Source: Minisyncoccota bacterium
Lineage (GTDB): Bacteria; Patescibacteriota; Minisyncoccia; Phycocordibacterales; UBA2135
Assembly (NCBI GenBank): GCA_040879685.1
Contig: JBBDJW010000005.1
Span: forward strand, 21,741 to 85,740
Direction: 5' to 3'
Length of the DNA stretch: 64,000 nucleotides
Position 1 is the stretch's first letter. The number at the start of each line of letters is the position of its first letter. The notes under the pieces were generated by a model. That model made no database searches, was not told where the DNA came from, and saw only the letters and a list, made by a program, of their open reading frames with translations. Below, in pieces: positions 16,128-55,849 of the stretch. A program made the translations under genes and the position numbers.

Positions 16128-16451
16128 ATGATGAATCGCAGAGAAGATCTTTTTCTTGTAACCCTTATTGTCCTTGTGGGGCTGGGGAGCTTCGGTCTTG
16201 GAAGACTCTCGGCGATAGAGCAAGGTGAAGTAAGAATAGAGTCGGTATCGGCGCTCTCTAGAGATGCGACTGGCTCGCTGGAAGATCAAGGAAAGGGAGG
16301 TTTTGTGGGTTCAATAAACAGCACAAAATATCACGCACCGTGGTGCTCGGGAGCTTCACGTATTGCACGAGAAAATGAAATTTGGTTTGCTTCAGAAGAA
16401 GAGGCACAGCGGGCAGGGTATACTCCGGCGGCAAACTGCAAAGGAATTTAA
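16128..16451 (+). CDS. small membrane-anchored protein whose C-terminal domain resembles the Ada N-terminal metal-binding fold
   Basis: TM helix LFLVTLIVLVGLGSFGLG. The C-terminus YHAPWCSGASRIARENEIWFASEEEAQRAGYTPAANCKG aligns with Ada FCRPSCRARHALRENVSFYANASEALAAGFRPCKRCQP. ATG at 16128. Confidence 0.55.
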   Translation: MMNRREDLFLVTLIVLVGLGSFGLGRLSAIEQGEVRIESVSALSRDATGSLEDQGKGGFVGSINSTKYHAPWCSGASRIARENEIWFASEEEAQRAGYTPAANCKGI

Positions 16452-16482
16452 TTTAGTCAGCAATTATGTTACGATTATTGAT

Positions 16483-17232
16483 ATGAGAGAAGATGTTGCA
16501 CGAACATTAGAAGAGGTAGATAGGGGAGCTGAAGCACCGAAAGGGGAGAAGTATATCCCCAATAAGGTGAGTTTTTGGCGTCTCATTGCTATTTTGAGGG
16601 AGTTTCAAAAGGGATTTAATCTTATTCAAAAATATTCACTTGCAGTGACATTTTTTGGATCTTCTCGGGAGTGTCTCTCAAAAGAAACATACGCAGAAGT
16701 TACTAAACTCGCTCGCATACTTTCAAAAGACGGCTTTACCGTAATTACCGGAGGAGGTGGGGGTGTTATGGGTGCGGCAAACAAGGGGGCTCATGAGGCA
16801 GGAGGGGATTCTGTTGGGGTAAATATTAAACTTCCTCATGAACAAAATCTTAACAAGTACACAACAGATTCTAAGGAATTTAAATATTTCTTTATTAGAA
16901 AGATAATGCTCTCGTTTGCTTCTGAAGCATATATTTTTTTCCCTGGAGGTTACGGTACCTTAGATGAGTTTTTTGAGATTATTACACTTATTCAGACAAA
17001 GAAAATTCAACCGATTCCTGTTGTGCTTGTGGGAAAGAGTTATTGGTCTCCTCTTATAGAGTGGATAAACAAAACACTTTATGAAAAAAAAGGCACGATT
17101 AATAAGGAAGATTTAGAAATTTTTTTTCTTGTTGATAACGCCGAAGAAGCACACAAAGCAACACATCTTCTTCTTAAAAAACTTTGTCCAACGTGCCTCG
17201 CTGACCATGGAGTAGCGGAGAAATGTGAGTGA
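16483..17232 (+). CDS. LOG family protein (TIGR00730-type Rossmann-fold nucleotide-binding / cytokinin riboside 5'-monophosphate phosphoribohydrolase-like)
   Basis: GGGGGVMGAANKGA and PGGYGTLDEFFE motifs. The ATG at 16483 follows the stop of the upstream gene. Confidence 0.8.
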   Translation: MREDVARTLEEVDRGAEAPKGEKYIPNKVSFWRLIAILREFQKGFNLIQKYSLAVTFFGSSRECLSKETYAEVTKLARILSKDGFTVITGGGGGVMGAANKGAHEAGGDSVGVNIKLPHEQNLNKYTTDSKEFKYFFIRKIMLSFASEAYIFFPGGYGTLDEFFEIITLIQTKKIQPIPVVLVGKSYWSPLIEWINKTLYEKKGTINKEDLEIFFLVDNAEEAHKATHLLLKKLCPTCLADHGVAEKCE

Positions 17233-17504
17233 ACAGAGCGCATAGTTTTTAGATTTTAGGATGCATCTCACCGTCGGGAAAGACAAGGTGGGTGCAAATG
17301 ATTAAAAAAACGATAGGGGATAGGGTTTTTGCGCCCTTGTTTCTCTATCTTATCGTGTCGCACAATATACATTTTACGTAGGTAAGAATATCAATAAAGA
17401 AGGTAATAGTTACTACCTTCTGAATTTTACTTTCTAATTCCTACTTCTAGTTTCAACAGTTGTAATTTTCCGAAAGTTATAGACCTTGTGACGTAACACC
17501 TCTC

Positions 17505-17541
17505 GTTACCGTGTTATACTTCCGAAGTATAATACGGTAAC
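17505..17541. repeat. near-perfect 37-bp palindrome in a 650-bp non-coding region
   Basis: gttaccgtgttatacttcCgaagtataatacggtaac, with 1 mismatch between arms. Confidence 0.6.
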
Positions 17542-17631
17542 TGAGAAGTCCGACTCCTCAGTAACTCCTCAGTAGAGTGCTCAATACAAAAAATATTCCT
17601 AAAAACTCCCCTATGCCTTTCCATTCCATAT

Positions 17632-17650
17632 ACACAAGTCTGACTTGTGT
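17632..17650. repeat. copy of the 19-bp palindrome ACACAAGTCTGACTTGTGT. Two more copies lie at 30067-30119.
   Basis: Exact string match seen in the sequence at three places. Confidence 0.7.
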
Positions 17651-17821
17651 GGTAAGGAATGATGGTGAGAATGCACTTCAAATTCGGTAAACAGATAAAT
17701 AGGTAAATACTACTCAAGACATTGAAAGGCTTCATAAAGACGACGCGCTTTCTTATCCCCTTCTTTTGAAAAAACATTCTCAAGCGCGCATAAAAAAGTA
17801 AAAAGTAATGCGTGCCAATCA

Positions 17822-17857
17822 CAATACTCCAATATTCTATAGAATGTTGGAGTATTG
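17822..17857. repeat. 36-bp near-perfect palindrome/hairpin CAATACTCCAAtattctatagaatgTTGGAGTATTG, a possible terminator for the minus-strand operon ending at 17879
   Basis: Arms of 11 bp are perfect and the centre is itself palindromic. A T-rich tract follows on the minus strand. Confidence 0.5.
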
Positions 17858-17878
17858 TGAAGAGTGTTTTTTATAAAA

Positions 17879-18190
17879 TCAGCGTGTTATTACCGGAGCG
17901 TTCAGCTCAAAATCATGCGGCTCTCCTACTTTGATGCGTTCAAGGTTGTCTACAAAACTGCTCCAGAGCAAGTCTATAAAAATATTGTTCCAGAAATATA
18001 AAACGGGGCTTGCAAGATGTTCATTCCAAACATATTTTGCTCCTTCAACAATATATTCAATATTTTTTTGTGTTGTTGGCTGGTCAATAAAAGATTTAAT
18101 ATCAAAGTTAAAATAACTCAAAACAAGAACGCCTAAAACAATAAGAATAATAAGTTTTATGAGCCCTTTGTTTTTTTGATGTGCGTACAT
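17879..18190 (-). CDS. hypothetical small membrane-anchored protein
   Basis: 103 aa with a TM helix LIKLIILIVLGVLVLSYF. Abuts the upstream M23 peptidase gene, so is probably co-transcribed. No recognisable domain. Confidence 0.45.
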   Translation of the reverse strand: MYAHQKNKGLIKLIILIVLGVLVLSYFNFDIKSFIDQPTTQKNIEYIVEGAKYVWNEHLASPVLYFWNNIFIDLLWSSFVDNLERIKVGEPHDFELNAPVITR

Positions 18191-19495: not shown

Positions 19496-20858
19496 ACACT
19501 TCTAACTTTTTAGCGGCACTACGCAGACGAGAAATTGTTTCTTTTTTTCCAAAGAATTCAGAGAGCGTAAAGGGATCGGGAGAGTGCTCTTTTCCTGAAA
19601 GTGCAAAACGCATTGGCCACAGAACACCCCCCCTCCCCTCTTTCTCTGCATACTCCCACACCGCTTCTTTTATTTTTTCTTTACTAAAAAACTTCTCGTC
19701 TAGTTCTGTTAAAAGCGAAGCGACACGAAGGACTCGTTCCTGTGTTCGCTCTTTGTCCGTCTCGCCTTTCCATAAAAGTTTTTTCGTCTCATAGTGAGGT
19801 TCAATAAAAAAATAAGAAAGCGCATCGTCTTTATGAAGCTTTTCAATGTCTTGAAAAGTATCAATGTGTTCTGTTAAAATTCTGCGTGCGCGCAGTACTT
19901 TTTCCTTAAAGTTTGGTAGTGCGGATAATGCATGCGGAAAAAAAGTAGTTGCCTGTGTGAGCCATTCACTATCAGTTAAGTTTTTTATATGCCGACGATT
20001 AAGCCAGTGCAATTTTTGATAATCAAAAATTGCACCACCCTTTCCAATGTGTTCAAAGGAAAAGTATTTTGTGAGCTCGGAAAGCGAAAAAACATCTTCT
20101 TTTTGTTGCCGTATCTCTTCTGCCGGAGCCCAACCAAGAAACGCCATATAATTAAGAAGGGCTTCTGGTAAATAACCCTCTGCCTTAAAATCGCCCACAG
20201 AAGTTGCTCCGTGGCGTTTAGAGAGCTTAGACCTATCTTCACCCAAAACAAGCGGTAAATGGGCGTATTTGGGCCTCAGAGCGCCGAGAGCGTCTTGTAT
20301 CAGTATCTGGCGAGGAGTATTTGAAATATGGTCTTCTCCGCGGATAATGTGGGTAATCCCCATTTCATGGTCATCCACCACAACCGCCAAATGATAGAGG
20401 GGGTCACGGACACTCTTTGCGATAATAAAGTCACCCAAATCGGCAGTGTCCATCTCAATTTCACCACGTACAAGGTCGGTGAAACTTACTTTAATATTTG
20501 GGTTTTTAAAGCGGATGACCATGCTCTCCTCTCCGTCTTTCTCTTCTTTTGACTCGTAGGCACTACCGCTTTGTAGGAGGCCTTGTACATGTTTTTCATA
20601 AATATCCCCTCGTCTGCTTTGATAGATAATTTCACCACTATACTTCAAGCCAAGCCACGCAAGTCCTTCTAAAATGTCTTTTTCATATTCTTCCCTGCTA
20701 CGCTGTATATCGGTGTCCTCAATGCGTAAATACATCTCTCCACCATAGTGCGTGGCGGCAAGAAAGTTAAACAGTGCTGTGCGAGCAGAACCTATGTGCA
20801 AATTTCCCGTTGGCGACGGAGCAAAACGAGTCTTCATATTTTTTGTTTTGTTAACCAT
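19485..20858 (-). CDS. gltX: glutamyl-tRNA synthetase
   Basis: TRFAPSPTGNLHIGSARTALFN (HIGH region) and KLSKRHG. The start may instead be the MKTRF at 20837. Confidence 0.88.
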   Translation of the reverse strand: MVNKTKNMKTRFAPSPTGNLHIGSARTALFNFLAATHYGGEMYLRIEDTDIQRSREEYEKDILEGLAWLGLKYSGEIIYQSRRGDIYEKHVQGLLQSGSAYESKEEKDGEESMVIRFKNPNIKVSFTDLVRGEIEMDTADLGDFIIAKSVRDPLYHLAVVVDDHEMGITHIIRGEDHISNTPRQILIQDALGALRPKYAHLPLVLGEDRSKLSKRHGATSVGDFKAEGYLPEALLNYMAFLGWAPAEEIRQQKEDVFSLSELTKYFSFEHIGKGGAIFDYQKLHWLNRRHIKNLTDSEWLTQATTFFPHALSALPNFKEKVLRARRILTEHIDTFQDIEKLHKDDALSYFFIEPHYETKKLLWKGETDKERTQERVLRVASLLTELDEKFFSKEKIKEAVWEYAEKEGRGGVLWPMRFALSGKEHSPDPFTLSEFFGKKETISRLRSAAKKLEVYEK

Positions 20859-24691: not shown

Positions 24692-24799
24692 AGCATAGCT
24701 CCTTATATATATGAATTTAAAAAAAACTTCTTTACCGCTTCTTGTCTTTTATCATATATAGTCTATCTTGTCAATATCTCGTGTGGTAGATTCAATAGC

Positions 24800-24820
24800 G
24801 TCAAAAGCTTAGCTTTTGAC
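24800..24820. repeat. 21-bp palindromic hairpin GTCAAAAGCTTAGCTTTTGAC, copy 1
   Basis: Perfect 9-bp arms. An identical element in reverse-complement orientation lies at 25048-25068. Confidence 0.7.
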
Positions 24821-25047
24821 AATGGGGGCAGGAAATTATAAAACCGTCAAATTGTGCACTATCCAATGTTGAAATTAATTATGGAACTCACCCCAAGAGG
24901 AAAAACTTCTGGGAGAGGTATGCTTCTAAAACACCTCTGTAGAGCTGTTTTAGAGACTATTTTAGAGAAAGAATTTCTTCATAATTATATATTTGATGCT
25001 ATAGCATTAAATATATAATTTCCTCCGCCGAGAAATTATGCCTAAGT

Positions 25048-25068
25048 GTCAAAAGCTAAGCTTTTGAC
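25048..25068. repeat. 21-bp palindromic hairpin GTCAAAAGCTAAGCTTTTGAC, copy 2, the reverse complement of copy 1
   Basis: Exact reverse complement of 24800-24820. The two bracket about 230 bp of non-coding DNA. Confidence 0.7.
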
Positions 25069-25161
25069 ACTACGGGAATAAAATCAAAAAACTGTTTCGC
25101 CTACTGCGCGACGGTTTTTTATTCCTATAGCAACCTACAGCAATGGTAATAATATCTTTTT

Positions 25162-29783: not shown

Positions 29784-30066
29784 AAGATAACTAAATAACC
29801 AATGAAAATAACTTAAATTCTTATCTTGAATAAAATCCAGATTCTCATTGAAGTGATTGTATGTGTTCTAGTTGCTGGCGTTTACCTATCCGTTTTTACT
29901 TACTTGAAAGATCTTTTTCATATCAAGGTGTATTTAAATAAATTATAAACACACTATAGCGGTCGCCATCGTCACGTACAATTTCCATACCGCGCGCTCC
30001 GCGTTTGATACTATGCACAACCGATCCGATTTCGTATAGTTCAATTCGCAGAGCATTATTATTTAC

Positions 30067-30119
30067 ACACAAGTCTGACTTGTGTATATGTGGTATTTAT
30101 ACACAAGTCAGACTTGTGT
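30067..30119. repeat. tandem pair of 19-bp palindromes, ACACAAGTCTGACTTGTGT at 30067-30085 and ACACAAGTCAGACTTGTGT at 30101-30119. Each is followed by (R)TATGTGG.
   Basis: Seen directly in the sequence. The same palindrome also occurs at 17632-17650. Confidence 0.7.
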
Positions 30120-30178
30120 GTATGTGGCGGTCAGAGTTTTGGTGGTGATCAGTGAAGAGATAAAGCCCCTTTGCAAAT

Positions 30179-47714: not shown

Positions 47715-48305
47715 TTATGCGACGGCGGTGCAAGCGGGAAAGATGATGGGGTGCTCGTCTGTAAAAGAGCATCCGCATTCTTTCTCGTGGAGTGACATCA
47801 GTTCGTCACGATGGCGAATAAGGGCTTCAGCGAGCTTACGATCAGCTTCAGCGCCCCTCCGACCAGCTTCAGCGCGCTTACGATTAGCTTCATCACGCTC
47901 CCGACGAGCTTCATCGTACTTCCGCTCAGCTTCAGCGAGCCTCCGATGAGCTTCATTCCACTCCCGATCAGCTTCAATGAGTCTCCGCTGAGCTTCATCA
48001 CGCTCCCGATTAGCTTCATCGTACTTCCGCTCAGCTTCAGCGAGCTTACACACAGCATCTTCAACCTCAGAAGGAATCTCTCCCATAACCGGTTTGAAGA
48101 GCTGGAGACGGAGCTCTCGTTCGTCTACGAATTTTTCCACGATACACGCCACCCGCTCCTTGTAATCCCAGCAGAACTCAATCGCTTCTTCGTTGTGATG
48201 CACATGCCAGTACATACCGGGAGTGAACGTTTTGATACGTTCATCAACAAGTTCTGCTGTCTCCTGGCTGACGCCTTTCACCTCACTCCAGTTTATACTT
48301 TCCAT
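47715..48305 (-). CDS. hypothetical protein with a tandem charged-repeat region (8-aa R..xEAxR periodicity, plus a 35-aa duplication) between unique N- and C-terminal segments
   Basis: Translation ...LAEAERKYDEANRERDEAQRRLIEADREWNEAHRRLAEAERKYDEARRERDEANRKRAEAGRRGAEADRKLAEA... The start is chosen at MESINW (48305), which has a GAGAGAGAGAAG purine tract upstream. No homolog recognised. Confidence 0.6.
   Translation of the reverse strand: MESINWSEVKGVSQETAELVDERIKTFTPGMYWHVHHNEEAIEFCWDYKERVACIVEKFVDERELRLQLFKPVMGEIPSEVEDAVCKLAEAERKYDEANRERDEAQRRLIEADREWNEAHRRLAEAERKYDEARRERDEANRKRAEAGRRGAEADRKLAEALIRHRDELMSLHEKECGCSFTDEHPIIFPACTAVA
47820..48060. repeat. intragenic tandem DNA repeats: 24-nt units containing AGCTTCA, and a 105-nt duplication (53-nt cores at 47888-47940 and 47993-48045, 2 mismatches)
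   Basis: Seen directly. Both periodicities are multiples of 3, so the reading frame is preserved. Confidence 0.8.
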
Positions 48306-48427
48306 CTTCTCTCTCTCTTGTTTGTGAATCTGTACACAGATTGTCATAGTGGAGTGTTTTTGTCAACCCCTCTACAACTCATCCAACGTCTAATGTTGGA
48401 CATTTTGTTTCAGCATAGCTTCTTTCA

Positions 48428-49720
48428 TTAACGGGATAAAAATTTTCTCCCCCGAGACTTAGTGTGAAAGGCAAGCGCGAAGCGATGTGCCTCATAATTG
48501 GCAAGGAGGATAGCTTTTTCATAATGCTTCTTATAGAAAGCACTCCCTTTGATTTCACGAGGTTTATGGTGCTCGTCTTTAACAACACTCACAATAGGGA
48601 TAGACATATCGTGTGAAGCAATAATTTTCTCAGCCACACGCTTTTGAGCAACCCCGCCGTCAACAACAATTAAATCTGGAAGTGGCCACTCGTTGTGGCG
48701 CATACGGCGCGTTAAAATTTCGGCAAGCGCGCCCACATCATCACCTCCCTTTGCTTCACGAATACTAAACTTTCGATACGAAGACGTATCCGTCTCTCCA
48801 CCCACGACGACAACCATGACGCCACCAGTATCTTTGCCTCCAGTATGGGCCACATCATACCCCTCAATACGGAACGTGTTGTACTCTCTTCCATCAAATT
48901 TGCTGGGAAGAAGCGCAACATCTTGAATATGATTCAACGAAAAAATAGTTTTTTTAATTTCTCCAGCCCGCTCATATTCCCTCTCGCGCGCCGAGTGCTT
49001 CATTTCTTTCTCTAGCTTGCGTATGAGGGTCTTTTTCTTTCCGGAAAAGAACATCTCTATATTGCGAATCCGTTCACGATACACCTTTTTTTCTATCTCA
49101 CCGAGACATACGCCAGGACACAGGCCAATCTGATATGAAAAACACGGCCGTGCTTTCTCCTTGGGGGTGAGCTCCACTTTGGGAGTACATCTCTTGTCCC
49201 TGAACGGAAAAATTTTTCTTACAATACCGAGTGCTCTCTTTAAGGTTGTACCTTGCGGGAAGGGCCCAAAGAGGGAGCGAATTTTCCCTGTATCTTTTTG
49301 TTTCAAAAGATCTCGATGGCGCATCACCACAACCTGCGGAAACGCTTCTTTGGTAATAACAATATAATTGAAGCTCTTATCATCTTTCTCTTTTACATTA
49401 TATTTCGGCTGATACTTTTTTATTAAATATGCCTCTACAATAAGCGCCTCAAGGACTGAGTCTGTCTTTTTAATACTTATGTCATGTGCTTTTTCAACCA
49501 TCCGTAAAATAGCCGGGGAACGAGATTCTGGAAGCCCCGCACTAAAATAACTCCGTACACGATTGGAGAGAGAACCAGCCTTCCCAATATAGAGAACCTC
49601 CCTTCCCCGCACCCCTTCTTGAGAAGTTTTTTTACCAAGAAAAAAATACACGCCGGGCGTATGAGGAAGCTTTTTTTTCTGTAGTGCTTGAAGATTCATG
49701 GTATTTAGAGTATCATACAA
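48428..49720 (-). CDS. uvrC: excinuclease ABC subunit C, short form: GIY-YIG, Cys cluster, UVR domain and RNase H-like endonuclease domain are present, but no C-terminal (HhH)2 domain
   Basis: PGVYFFLGKK...VLYIGKAGSLSNRVRSYF (GIY-YIG), REYERAGEIKKTIFSL (UVR), RIEGYDVAHTGG...LIVVDGG (endonuclease domain), and the tail AHRFAL. Only 80 nt lie between it and the next gene. Confidence 0.8.
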   Translation of the reverse strand: MYDTLNTMNLQALQKKKLPHTPGVYFFLGKKTSQEGVRGREVLYIGKAGSLSNRVRSYFSAGLPESRSPAILRMVEKAHDISIKKTDSVLEALIVEAYLIKKYQPKYNVKEKDDKSFNYIVITKEAFPQVVVMRHRDLLKQKDTGKIRSLFGPFPQGTTLKRALGIVRKIFPFRDKRCTPKVELTPKEKARPCFSYQIGLCPGVCLGEIEKKVYRERIRNIEMFFSGKKKTLIRKLEKEMKHSAREREYERAGEIKKTIFSLNHIQDVALLPSKFDGREYNTFRIEGYDVAHTGGKDTGGVMVVVVGGETDTSSYRKFSIREAKGGDDVGALAEILTRRMRHNEWPLPDLIVVDGGVAQKRVAEKIIASHDMSIPIVSVVKDEHHKPREIKGSAFYKKHYEKAILLANYEAHRFALAFHTKSRGRKFLSR

Positions 49721-55690: not shown

Positions 55691-55849
55691 CCTGCCGGCA
55701 GGCCTTATACACGCTTTCTCCTCACCACTTTACTTTAAAATTATATATTCAGACCTATAGGTCTGAATATATAATTTTCTCTCTCTTCACTCCTTTCTAC
55801 CTGCCGGCAAGCAGACTCCTCCCTCCTCATTCCCTCTCTGCCGGCAAGT
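55691..55849. promoter_or_regulatory. three copies of the palindromic core TGCCGGCA (CCTGCCGGCAGG at 55691-55702, CTGCCGGCAAG at 55801-55811 and 55838-55848) in a CT-rich tract, flanking a 42-bp perfect A/T-flanked palindrome
   Basis: Seen directly in the sequence. Confidence 0.5.
55737..55778. repeat. 42-bp perfect palindrome AAAATTATATATTCAGACCTA|TAGGTCTGAATATATAATTTT (possible bidirectional terminator)
   Basis: Seen directly. Downstream of the trxB and small-ORF transcription unit. Confidence 0.6.

Follow-up and report, generated by a model that had tools for sequence, protein, structure and literature searches.

The 64,000-nucleotide stretch of contig JBBDJW010000005.1 analyzed here (the window, 64 kb in full) comes from a Minisyncoccota bacterium. 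It is an ordinary housekeeping region that carries aminoacyl-tRNA synthetase genes, dnaB, recR, and genes for RNase III and ribosomal proteins. Three copies of a 19-bp palindrome are found in it. Two of these form a doublet near 30.1 kb, beside trpS, and the third lies in a spacer between convergent genes. The palindromes are very probably repetitive extragenic palindrome (REP) elements of a Patescibacteria-specific system that pairs REPs with a REP-associated tyrosine transposase (RAYT), an arrangement known as a REPtron. The doublet would then belong to a decayed REPtron at 30.1 kb, and the copy at 17632 would be a solitary REP.

Palindromes in the 64-kb Window

A pattern scan of the window places exact matches to ACACAAGTCWGACTTGTGT at 17632-17650, 30067-30085, and 30101-30119, all three as listed in an earlier note on this DNA. 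No fourth copy appears in the 64 kb even at three mismatches. The number expected by chance is 0.01 per window, and none of 100 dinucleotide-preserving shuffles reached three copies. The starts of the pair at 30.1 kb are 34 bp apart and (R)TATGTGG trails the copies, both of which had been described correctly. The TA that was said to precede each palindrome is present, with one base intervening, so that the preceding bases read TAY (TAC, TAT, and TAT).

The doublet spans 30064-30122, has no strand, and is a REPIN-like inverted dimer. It forms a perfect 25+9+25 inverted repeat (30064-30088 and 30098-30122) whose 25-nt arms are 100% complementary across a 9-nt spacer. Copy 1 (30064-30088, no strand), a pattern match that makes up the left arm, has the core ACACAAGTCTGACTTGTGT at 30067-30085 and the extended palindrome TACACACAAGTCTGACTTGTGTATA. 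Copy 2 (30098-30122, no strand) has the core ACACAAGTCAGACTTGTGT at 30101-30119 and is identical over its 25 nt to the reverse complement of copy 1. The doublet can alternatively be read as a tandem direct repeat of 34 nt (30060-30093 and 30094-30127) with 31 of 34 positions identical, and the three bases that differ in this direct reading are exactly those that turn copy 2 into the reverse complement of copy 1. As single-stranded DNA, the 19-mer core of copy 1 is predicted to fold into an 8-bp stem, three of whose pairs are G-C, with a 3-nt loop. The whole doublet would form a stem of 25 bp and a loop of 9 nt on either strand, at -26.5 kcal/mol (z = -11.4) and -27.1 kcal/mol (z = -10.1). A weak promoter-like match over copy 1 on the minus strand is not significant (one found against 1.8 expected).

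The stretch without a credible open reading frame (ORF) that holds the pair runs from 29763 or 29784 to 30178 (~400 nt). It is bordered by trpS on one side and by a small membrane-protein gene downstream of dnaK-dnaJ on the other. The solitary REP (17627-17655, no strand, core 17632-17650) shares similarity with the 30.1-kb copies over ~38 nt. It lies in a non-coding stretch of 646 nt (17233-17878) between a plus-strand SLOG/LOG-like gene at 16363-17232 and minus-strand genes on the right. A terminator scan gives no terminator-like prediction at any of the three copies, and none of them has a T-run after its core. Across the window no Rfam family reaches its gathering threshold, the matches below threshold being generic hairpin matches to miRNA precursor models, and a search of the window for tRNA and tmRNA genes found none.

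A Transposase Remnant beside the Doublet

The earlier note placed the palindromes in unusually long non-coding stretches. The lengths hold (646 and ~400 nt), except that the shorter stretch contains a fragment of a transposase pseudogene. This fragment, at 29926-30048 on the minus strand, is an N-terminal remnant of a RAYT/TnpA-REP-like Y1 transposase gene, and consists of 41 codons followed by a stop at 29923-29925. A profile of the Y1 family, searched against the six-frame translation of the window, matches 29932-30048 on the minus strand with E = 1e-10 and covers profile positions 2-42 of 233. This hmmsearch returned no other significant match in the 64 kb, so no transposase remnant was found near 17632, and the HUH, Tyr, and C-terminal parts of the 30.1-kb gene are gone. 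The remnant is 52% identical to the protein of locus L009 from another genome (tblastn) and 66% identical over 32 amino acids (aa) to the intact gene of locus L121 (BLASTP).

In a nucleotide alignment that covers the dimer, the spacer, and the first codons, the remnant begins with CTG (30046-30048) where three intact loci have the start codon ATG. Two internal codons are missing. Codons ~43-233, with the HUH motif, the catalytic tyrosine, and the C-terminal domain, have been deleted together with the downstream REP. The layout is therefore a REP dimer (30064-30122), a spacer of 15 nt between it and the former start codon, the stump (29926-30048), ~140 nt, and then trpS. With its start codon dead and the remainder of the gene lost, 29926-30122 is read as a decayed REPtron. 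Judged by its sequence, the supposedly non-coding 400 bp thus holds a REP dimer and the dead stump of its cognate Y1 gene. Because the local enzyme gene is dead, the three REPs of the window are either orphans or are served by a copy of the enzyme outside the window.

Equivalent REP dimers lie directly upstream of intact homologs in L009, L023, L121, L038-L046, and L087, and the gene-adjoining palindromic dimers of L038-L046, L087, and L121 measure 40-46 nt. In the related genome Ga0222673_1000001, whose TrpRS is 71% identical, the order dnaK-dnaJ...trpS-aminoacyl-tRNA synthetase-scpAB-dacA is kept, and an intact Y1 gene preceded by the dimer TATACACAAGTCTGACTTATGTACATAAGTCAGACTTGTGTATAA is found 5.6 kb from trpS. 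The Y1 gene thus lies elsewhere in an otherwise syntenic relative, which indicates that its position is not fixed. The TrpRS of the nearest relative is only 74% identical, and there is no close relative by which the deletion could be dated from synteny.

Exact Copies in Other Genomes

According to the earlier note, the three copies would be a coincidence if neither further copies nor conservation were found. An exact-match scan with ACACAAGTCNGACTTGTGT of one genome per species (596 Gb) returned 34 sites in 30 loci (L001-L030) from 14 other assemblies, nearly all Patescibacteria, with up to eight sites per metagenome-assembled genome (MAG). By our own arithmetic, about nine sites are expected by chance in the whole 596-Gb collection. 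The source MAGs are labeled Kaiserbacteria, Nomurabacteria, Saccharibacteria, Patescibacteria group, or plain 'bacterium', and only two loci clearly come from other taxa. The viral collection contains only one exact match. All four bases occur at the center of the palindrome among the genomic copies. The flanks that extend the palindrome are uniform within a genome and differ between genomes (aagt..actt in VGJQ01, aaa..ttt in CAZSOS01, and tay..rta in the window).

The placement of the 34 sites relative to genes was judged on a crude ORF map. At least 12 of them lie within 15 nt downstream of a stop codon (0-14 nt). At least seven lie between convergent genes and only five between divergent genes; a convergent setting is found for copies of L001, L004, L013, L014, L015, and L029, as it is for the window copy at 17632. 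Placement at gene 3' ends and between convergent genes does not suit an operator and is what REP elements typically show. The flanking genes share no common function. Most copies are solitary, in that about 28 of the 34 exact copies in L001-L030 have no adjoining Y1 gene. Four of the five copies in CAZSOS01 are flanked by A-runs and T-runs in the manner of a bidirectional terminator, and canonical GC-rich terminators often adjoin the palindrome in other genomes.

Two exact copies from two MAGs, at L010 7138-7156 and L005 30-48, fall within ORFs that encode a NUDIX domain or at the extreme end of such an ORF. The L010 ORF resembles a truncated LeuRS fused to NUDIX, which may reflect a REP-associated rearrangement or an in-frame insertion.

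The Associated Y1 Transposase Gene

When mismatches are allowed, four assemblies (L009, L019, L023, and L028) show the palindrome on each side of a gene for a protein of ~230 aa. In L031, L035, and L121, too, the two flanks of the gene share one palindrome. The bracketed proteins are homologous to one another and match Pfam Y1_Tnp (PF01797). Alignment of the intact relatives reveals the HUH motif (NHFHL; N83-H84-F85-H86) and a nearly invariant Y144 within a YI/VxVKN or YIHLNP context. The best NCBIfam model for all five proteins tested is REP_Tyr_transpos, NF047646 (E 8e-10 to 4e-12), and IS200 reaches only E >= 0.005. An AlphaFold model of the protein P0001 (mean pLDDT 75.6) has as its best Foldseek match in the PDB the E. 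coli TnpA-REP bound to a REP hairpin (4ER8; E 9e-5, target TM 0.63). The IS608, ISDra2, and IS200 transposases trail 4ER8 in this fold search (E ~1.5e-3 and above). A sequence-profile search of the PDB puts ISDra2 TnpA and 4ER8 level over the HUH-to-Tyr segment (E ~0.005-0.008).

The family is populous. A protein search found 812 relatives at 90% clustering, which are named at most 'transposase' and whose stated taxa are Patescibacteria or Kaiserbacteria. In an exhaustive HMMER search, the number of cluster representatives was 40 at E <= 1e-30 and 1289 at E <= 1e-10. No tnpB-like neighbor of the Y1 gene is listed in the gene tables of L031-L037 and L121. Among the loci fetched, each assembly has one gene per REP type and no duplicate gene copies. 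Other Y1 subfamilies in the same genomes have palindromes of their own, such as AAATTGGACAC-N3-GTGTCCAATTT in L004 and CAAGGCGACGCCTTG... in L031, and the Y1 gene of L034 has a palindrome with 23-nt arms. In L019 (7434-7452) and L028 (4302-4320), the REP-like sequence TCACAAGTCGGACTTGTGG lies in frame within the Y1 gene itself, just after the HUH motif. It encodes ..HKSDLW.., an insert of 8-9 aa that is absent from other family members.

Two Y1 genes of different subfamilies (L031 239-922 and L034 10001-10702), with different palindromes and in opposite orientation, directly adjoin the same gapdh-rpiB-rpe cluster in two separate genomes. This cluster may be a preferred landing site of Y1 genes.

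Palindromes Flanking the Gene in Metagenome Loci

The linkage of gene and palindrome was evaluated in 80 metagenome loci that were fetched by protein similarity (relatives of 51-73% identity) and not by DNA motif. A flank was scored for a 9-1-9 palindrome with at least eight of nine arm positions complementary, within ~160 nt upstream or 200 nt downstream of the gene. Seventy of the 75 evaluable loci have such a palindrome upstream; it is found downstream in 69 of 79, and 61 of 74 have one on each side. As background, a flank-sized stretch of these loci contains 0.04 palindromes. Another six cognate copies are situated over 220 nt from the gene.

At the apex, 136 of 168 palindromes have GTC-N-GAC and 22 have ATC-W-GAT. 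The outer stem varies by lineage with its complementarity kept (ACACAA, CCCACAA, GACGGAA, TGGGAAG, TAGTAG, TGGACAA, and others), and CCCACAAGTC and GACGGAAGTC are among the stem variants. Among 59 distinct hairpins, T13, C14, G16, and A17 are invariant, columns 6-9 each contain four Watson-Crick pair types, and G:T pairs are nearly absent. Pairing runs beyond the selected arms, at 85% in column 5 and 63% in column 4. The enzymes nearest the L009 protein (69-75%) go with ACACAAGTC or CCACAAGTC cores, and remoter enzymes go with other stems. The only signal in the flanks of the REPs is a weak A-rich 5' flank and a T(-10)/A(+10) extension.

A Probable REP/RAYT System in Patescibacteria

A REPtron is defined by a HUH/Tyr gene with its own palindrome on both sides, scattered copies of that palindrome, inverted dimers, and palindromes specific to each enzyme (Nunvar 2010, PMC2817692; Bertels & Rainey 2011, PMC3116915; Quentin 2018, PMC6006769). 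The pattern found here matches this published definition, and the REP-like extragenic palindrome, one of three options offered in the earlier note, is supported by the dispersed copies and the association with a Y1 gene. The reading builds on the sequence family, its conservation, its linkage to Y1 genes, the covariation of the stem, the affinity in fold and sequence to TnpA-REP, and the pseudogene.

Several known systems are similar. REPtrons such as that of E. coli yafM (4ER8) have a HUH/Tyr gene between its own short palindromes, extragenic dispersal of the palindrome, inverted dimers (REPINs), and a separate palindrome for each Y1 gene, and 4ER8 is the best structural match. One enzyme-one REP is described as a rule for REPtrons (Quentin 2018, PMC6006769). 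The in-frame insert between the HUH and Tyr motifs in L019 and L028 is paralleled by in-frame REP insertions reported for tnpA-REP subclass 2.4. The hairpins of the Candidate Phyla Radiation (CPR) described here have the same stem and loop geometry as the group 3 REPs of Stenotrophomonas maltophilia, which comprise GTAG, an 8-bp stem, and a 3-nt loop (Corneloup 2021, PMC8266576). In that REP the loop base is critical and a perfect stem is required (PMC8266576). The invariant apex and the strictly Watson-Crick, covarying stem of the CPR hairpins run parallel to this demand, which is consistent with the apex being a recognition determinant. However, cleavage of the S. maltophilia REP depends on GTAG, and just one of its strands serves as substrate (PMC8266576), while no conserved tetranucleotide is seen with the CPR palindromes and their two strands form nearly the same hairpin. 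Flanking structures without GT[AG]G and with more copies elsewhere in the genome are also described for TnpA-Y1 subclass 2.6 and class 3 (Quentin 2018, PMC6006769). Those structures are weaker and belong to Bacteroidetes, Planctomycetes, and Acidobacteria, in contrast to the strong, perfect CPR palindromes with a GTC-N-GAC apex common to hundreds of genes.

By analogy with the TnpA-REP of E. coli and S. maltophilia, the 19-mer would form its 8-bp stem and C-N-G loop on transiently single-stranded DNA, and this hairpin would be recognized by the RAYT-like enzyme. The (A/G)GTC-N-GAC(T/C) apex is likely to be the family-wide determinant of recognition and the covarying lower stem the lineage-specific one. 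The HUH/Tyr center of the enzyme would cut and rejoin single-stranded DNA, so that REPs or REP dimers would be copied to new extragenic sites. Most of these sites would immediately follow a gene on its 3' side, a position that tolerates insertions, and an effect of the hairpins on the 3' ends of transcripts may come as a secondary role. Such a role is possible from the position of the copies and from the A/T-runs that flank them in one assembly, and it is not needed to explain the data.

A number of points weigh against the assignment to REP/RAYT systems. Hairpin extrusion, binding, cleavage, and mobility are carried over from TnpA-REP systems. The NF047646 scores are 35-46 bits against a curated cutoff of 80, and identity to 4ER8 is only 14%; the CPR protein differs from TnpA-REP in its ~230 aa, in a C-terminal region that 4ER8 lacks, and in falling below the NCBIfam equivalog cutoff. 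No conserved 5' tetranucleotide (GT[AG]G) is seen in the flanks of the 34 genomic copies or in the position counts of 46 upstream and 45 downstream copies, whereas this 5' foot is a defining feature of canonical REPs (PMC6006769). The CPR core is also perfectly palindromic, so that nothing but the central base and the flanks distinguishes its two strands. The copy number is low (three in 64 kb and at most eight exact copies per MAG), tens of copies at most and not hundreds, where classical REPs have more than 100; for RAYT groups 1 and 4, 12-14 occurrences are reported, which is comparable (PMC5581495). Selection of the hairpins as palindromes makes the pair statistics for columns 6-14 partly circular, but leaves the enrichment over background and the pairing beyond the selected arms unaffected. 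Finally, the Y1 clades of L009/L023 and L019/L028, with ~26% protein identity, have the same ACACAAGTC-N-GACTTGTGT core, with A/T at its center in one clade and C/G in the other. One core in two such distant clades is not predicted by simple co-divergence of enzyme and REP. The elements functionally belong with REP/RAYT systems, yet they lack two classical REP traits, the GT[AG]G foot and a high copy number.

A broader proposition is that Patescibacteria contain a large, undescribed REP/RAYT class. Its REPs would be strand-symmetric 9-1-9 palindromes with an invariant GTC-N-GAC loop and no GT[AG]G, both strands would be equivalent substrates, and the class would persist in tiny, streamlined genomes, with frequent local decay of the kind seen in the window. 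Our judgment on this proposition is evenly divided.

Alternative Explanations

The most serious alternative is an ordinary insertion sequence (IS) of the IS200/IS605 type. The palindromes would then be the left and right end hairpins of an autonomous element, an IS remnant would be left in the window together with a solo end or a miniature inverted-repeat transposable element (MITE), and there would be no domesticated REP/RAYT relationship. We regard this as unlikely. IS200/IS605 elements such as IS608 and ISDra2 are similar in the HUH/Tyr fold, in the recognition of single-stranded DNA hairpins, and in having hairpins near the gene ends. The protein belongs to Y1_Tnp/PF01797, ISDra2 TnpA equals 4ER8 in the sequence-profile search, and the hairpin-flanked gene is pseudogenized here, as is often the case for IS copies. 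The few dispersed palindromes are also nearer to what is seen for IS-like RAYT groups (PMC5581495). However, these elements have distinct left and right ends, a multicopy mobile gene, often tnpB, and a dimeric TnpA of ~130-150 aa. Here the same palindrome is found on both flanks, solitary palindromes exceed gene copies, the loci fetched have a single gene of a given type per assembly, and no tnpB-like partner is present in the tables of L031-L037 or L121. The top matches are a RAYT model and a RAYT structure, and the protein has ~230 aa with a C-terminal extension where TnpA-IS200 has 130-150 aa. The degraded mobile element that the earlier note offered as a further option is half right: the palindromes are not the terminal repeats of a decayed IS, but the pair does adjoin the decayed stump of its cognate Y1 gene.

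It is very unlikely that the palindromes are operators of a dimeric transcription factor, possibly the Y1 protein itself or a GntR-like factor (GT-N3-AC core), that governs a small regulon including trpS. A regulator binding site shared by two loci was the remaining option of the earlier note. A perfect palindrome with a free central base would suit such a factor, as would tandem sites 34 bp apart (~3 helical turns) in front of both trpS and the former transposase gene; the Y1 gene could be autoregulated through sites on its upstream side, and the promoter-like match at copy 1, not significant as given above, would point the same way. But many copies, in convergent spacers or 0-14 nt after stops, have no promoter to regulate, and the 3' end of the Y1 gene is flanked as consistently as the 5' end, so this option is not supported. 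The flanking genes are functionally unrelated, and compensatory changes in the outer stem fit a hairpin better than a fixed protein-DNA code.

A sequence-conserved transcription terminator or 3'-untranslated-region stabilizer acting at the RNA level is less probable still. It would account for the strong bias to convergent positions and positions just after stops and for the A-runs and T-runs of the CAZSOS01 copies (four of five), and effects of REPs on mRNA 3' ends are described for E. coli (PMC3479197). It leaves the link with the Y1 gene unexplained. The window copies have neither a T-run nor a terminator prediction, and where GC-rich terminators stand beside the palindrome in other genomes, the palindrome is not needed for termination. 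The near absence of G:T pairs and the equivalence of the strands argue for a constraint at the DNA level, with the selection caveat given above for the pair statistics. An RNA-level function is possibly a secondary, exapted role of the element and is best viewed as such, rather than as its identity. Tandem NrdR boxes, FadR/GntR-type GT-N3-AC sites, parS, dif, and DNA uptake sequences were considered as leads only and were dropped on account of the 3'-end and convergent placement and the Y1 association.

Significance

To our knowledge, work on REP/RAYT systems is almost confined to Proteobacteria. A search of full-text literature, which leaves subscription-only papers outside its reach, found none that meaningfully joins RAYT, REPIN, TnpA-REP, or 'repetitive extragenic' to CPR lineages. 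The REP/RAYT system thus appears to reach a bacterial group, the CPR or Patescibacteria, for which no description was found. For non-IS tnpA-Y1 genes, an enrichment in large genomes is reported, together with their absence from the Mollicutes sampled (PMC6006769). The hosts here have CPR genomes of the ~1-Mb class, unlike that reported distribution. A populous family in such ultra-small genomes, with nearly every gene bracketed by its own palindrome, alters the large-genome picture.

With hundreds of natural enzyme/hairpin pairs, in which the loop is invariant and the stem covaries, REP recognition becomes directly testable. If Patescibacteria do contain a large undescribed class, the conserved loop and the covarying stem would amount to a natural data set on a 'recognition code'. 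Persistence of the class in streamlined genomes would then mean that the hairpins at gene 3' ends benefit the host or that the system is a selfish replicator of unusual efficiency. For annotation, the REP/RAYT assignment explains 'unusually long intergenic regions' and conserved gene-end hairpins in CPR MAGs, and short Y1 pseudogene stumps that gene callers miss are now flagged. The practical yield for the window is modest, one decayed REPtron and one orphan REP, and it points to a large family that merits dedicated study.

Other Features of the Window

The spacer that contains the solitary REP has further features. Plus-strand genes lie to the left of 17232-17879 and minus-strand genes to the right, and the cumulative GC skew has its maximum at ~17-18 kb, a pattern that a replication terminus would produce. 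A search for dif at this putative terminus gave nothing convincing, the best candidate, at 17350-17377, being a weak match. The segments 17707-17756 and 19812-19861 form an inverted repeat of 50 nt with 92% complementarity. The arm in the spacer is a reversed piece of the coding sequence of gltX (GluRS), which lies 2 kb away, and so marks a rearrangement scar beside the solitary REP. Additional strong hairpins in the same spacer lie at 17819-17860, 17498-17549, and 17398-17421. The first has a 19-bp stem followed by a T-run and is terminator-like, usable on both strands; the second is a 52-nt near-palindrome with one G:T position. Scars of rearrangement seem to have accumulated in this spacer (17233-17878).

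A second palindrome family, GTCAAAAGCTWAGCTTTTGAC, has copies at 24796-24821 and 25047-25072, 250 bp apart in a 470-nt spacer after a D-Ala-D-Ala carboxypeptidase gene. Its stem is that of the REP flanking the Y1 gene of L065 (TGTCAAAAGTCAGACTTTTGACA), with the apex CT-W-AG instead of TC-N-GA. The stretch between the two copies matches the Tyr-motif region of the Y1 profile at 24842-25015 on the plus strand, very weakly and without significance (E 6.7). This region may be a second, older REPtron scar. A common AT-rich palindromic block of ~40 nt (AATTATATATT...TATAG...AATATATAATT) is found at 24983-25021 and 55738-55776, just upstream of two minus-strand genes, and could be a shared promoter or operator architecture. 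Lastly, at least ten tandem 21-nt units (60-80% identity) occupy 47803-48096 within the overlapping ORFs 47715-48347 (minus strand) and 47811-48431 (plus strand), which suggests a protein with 7-residue repeats.

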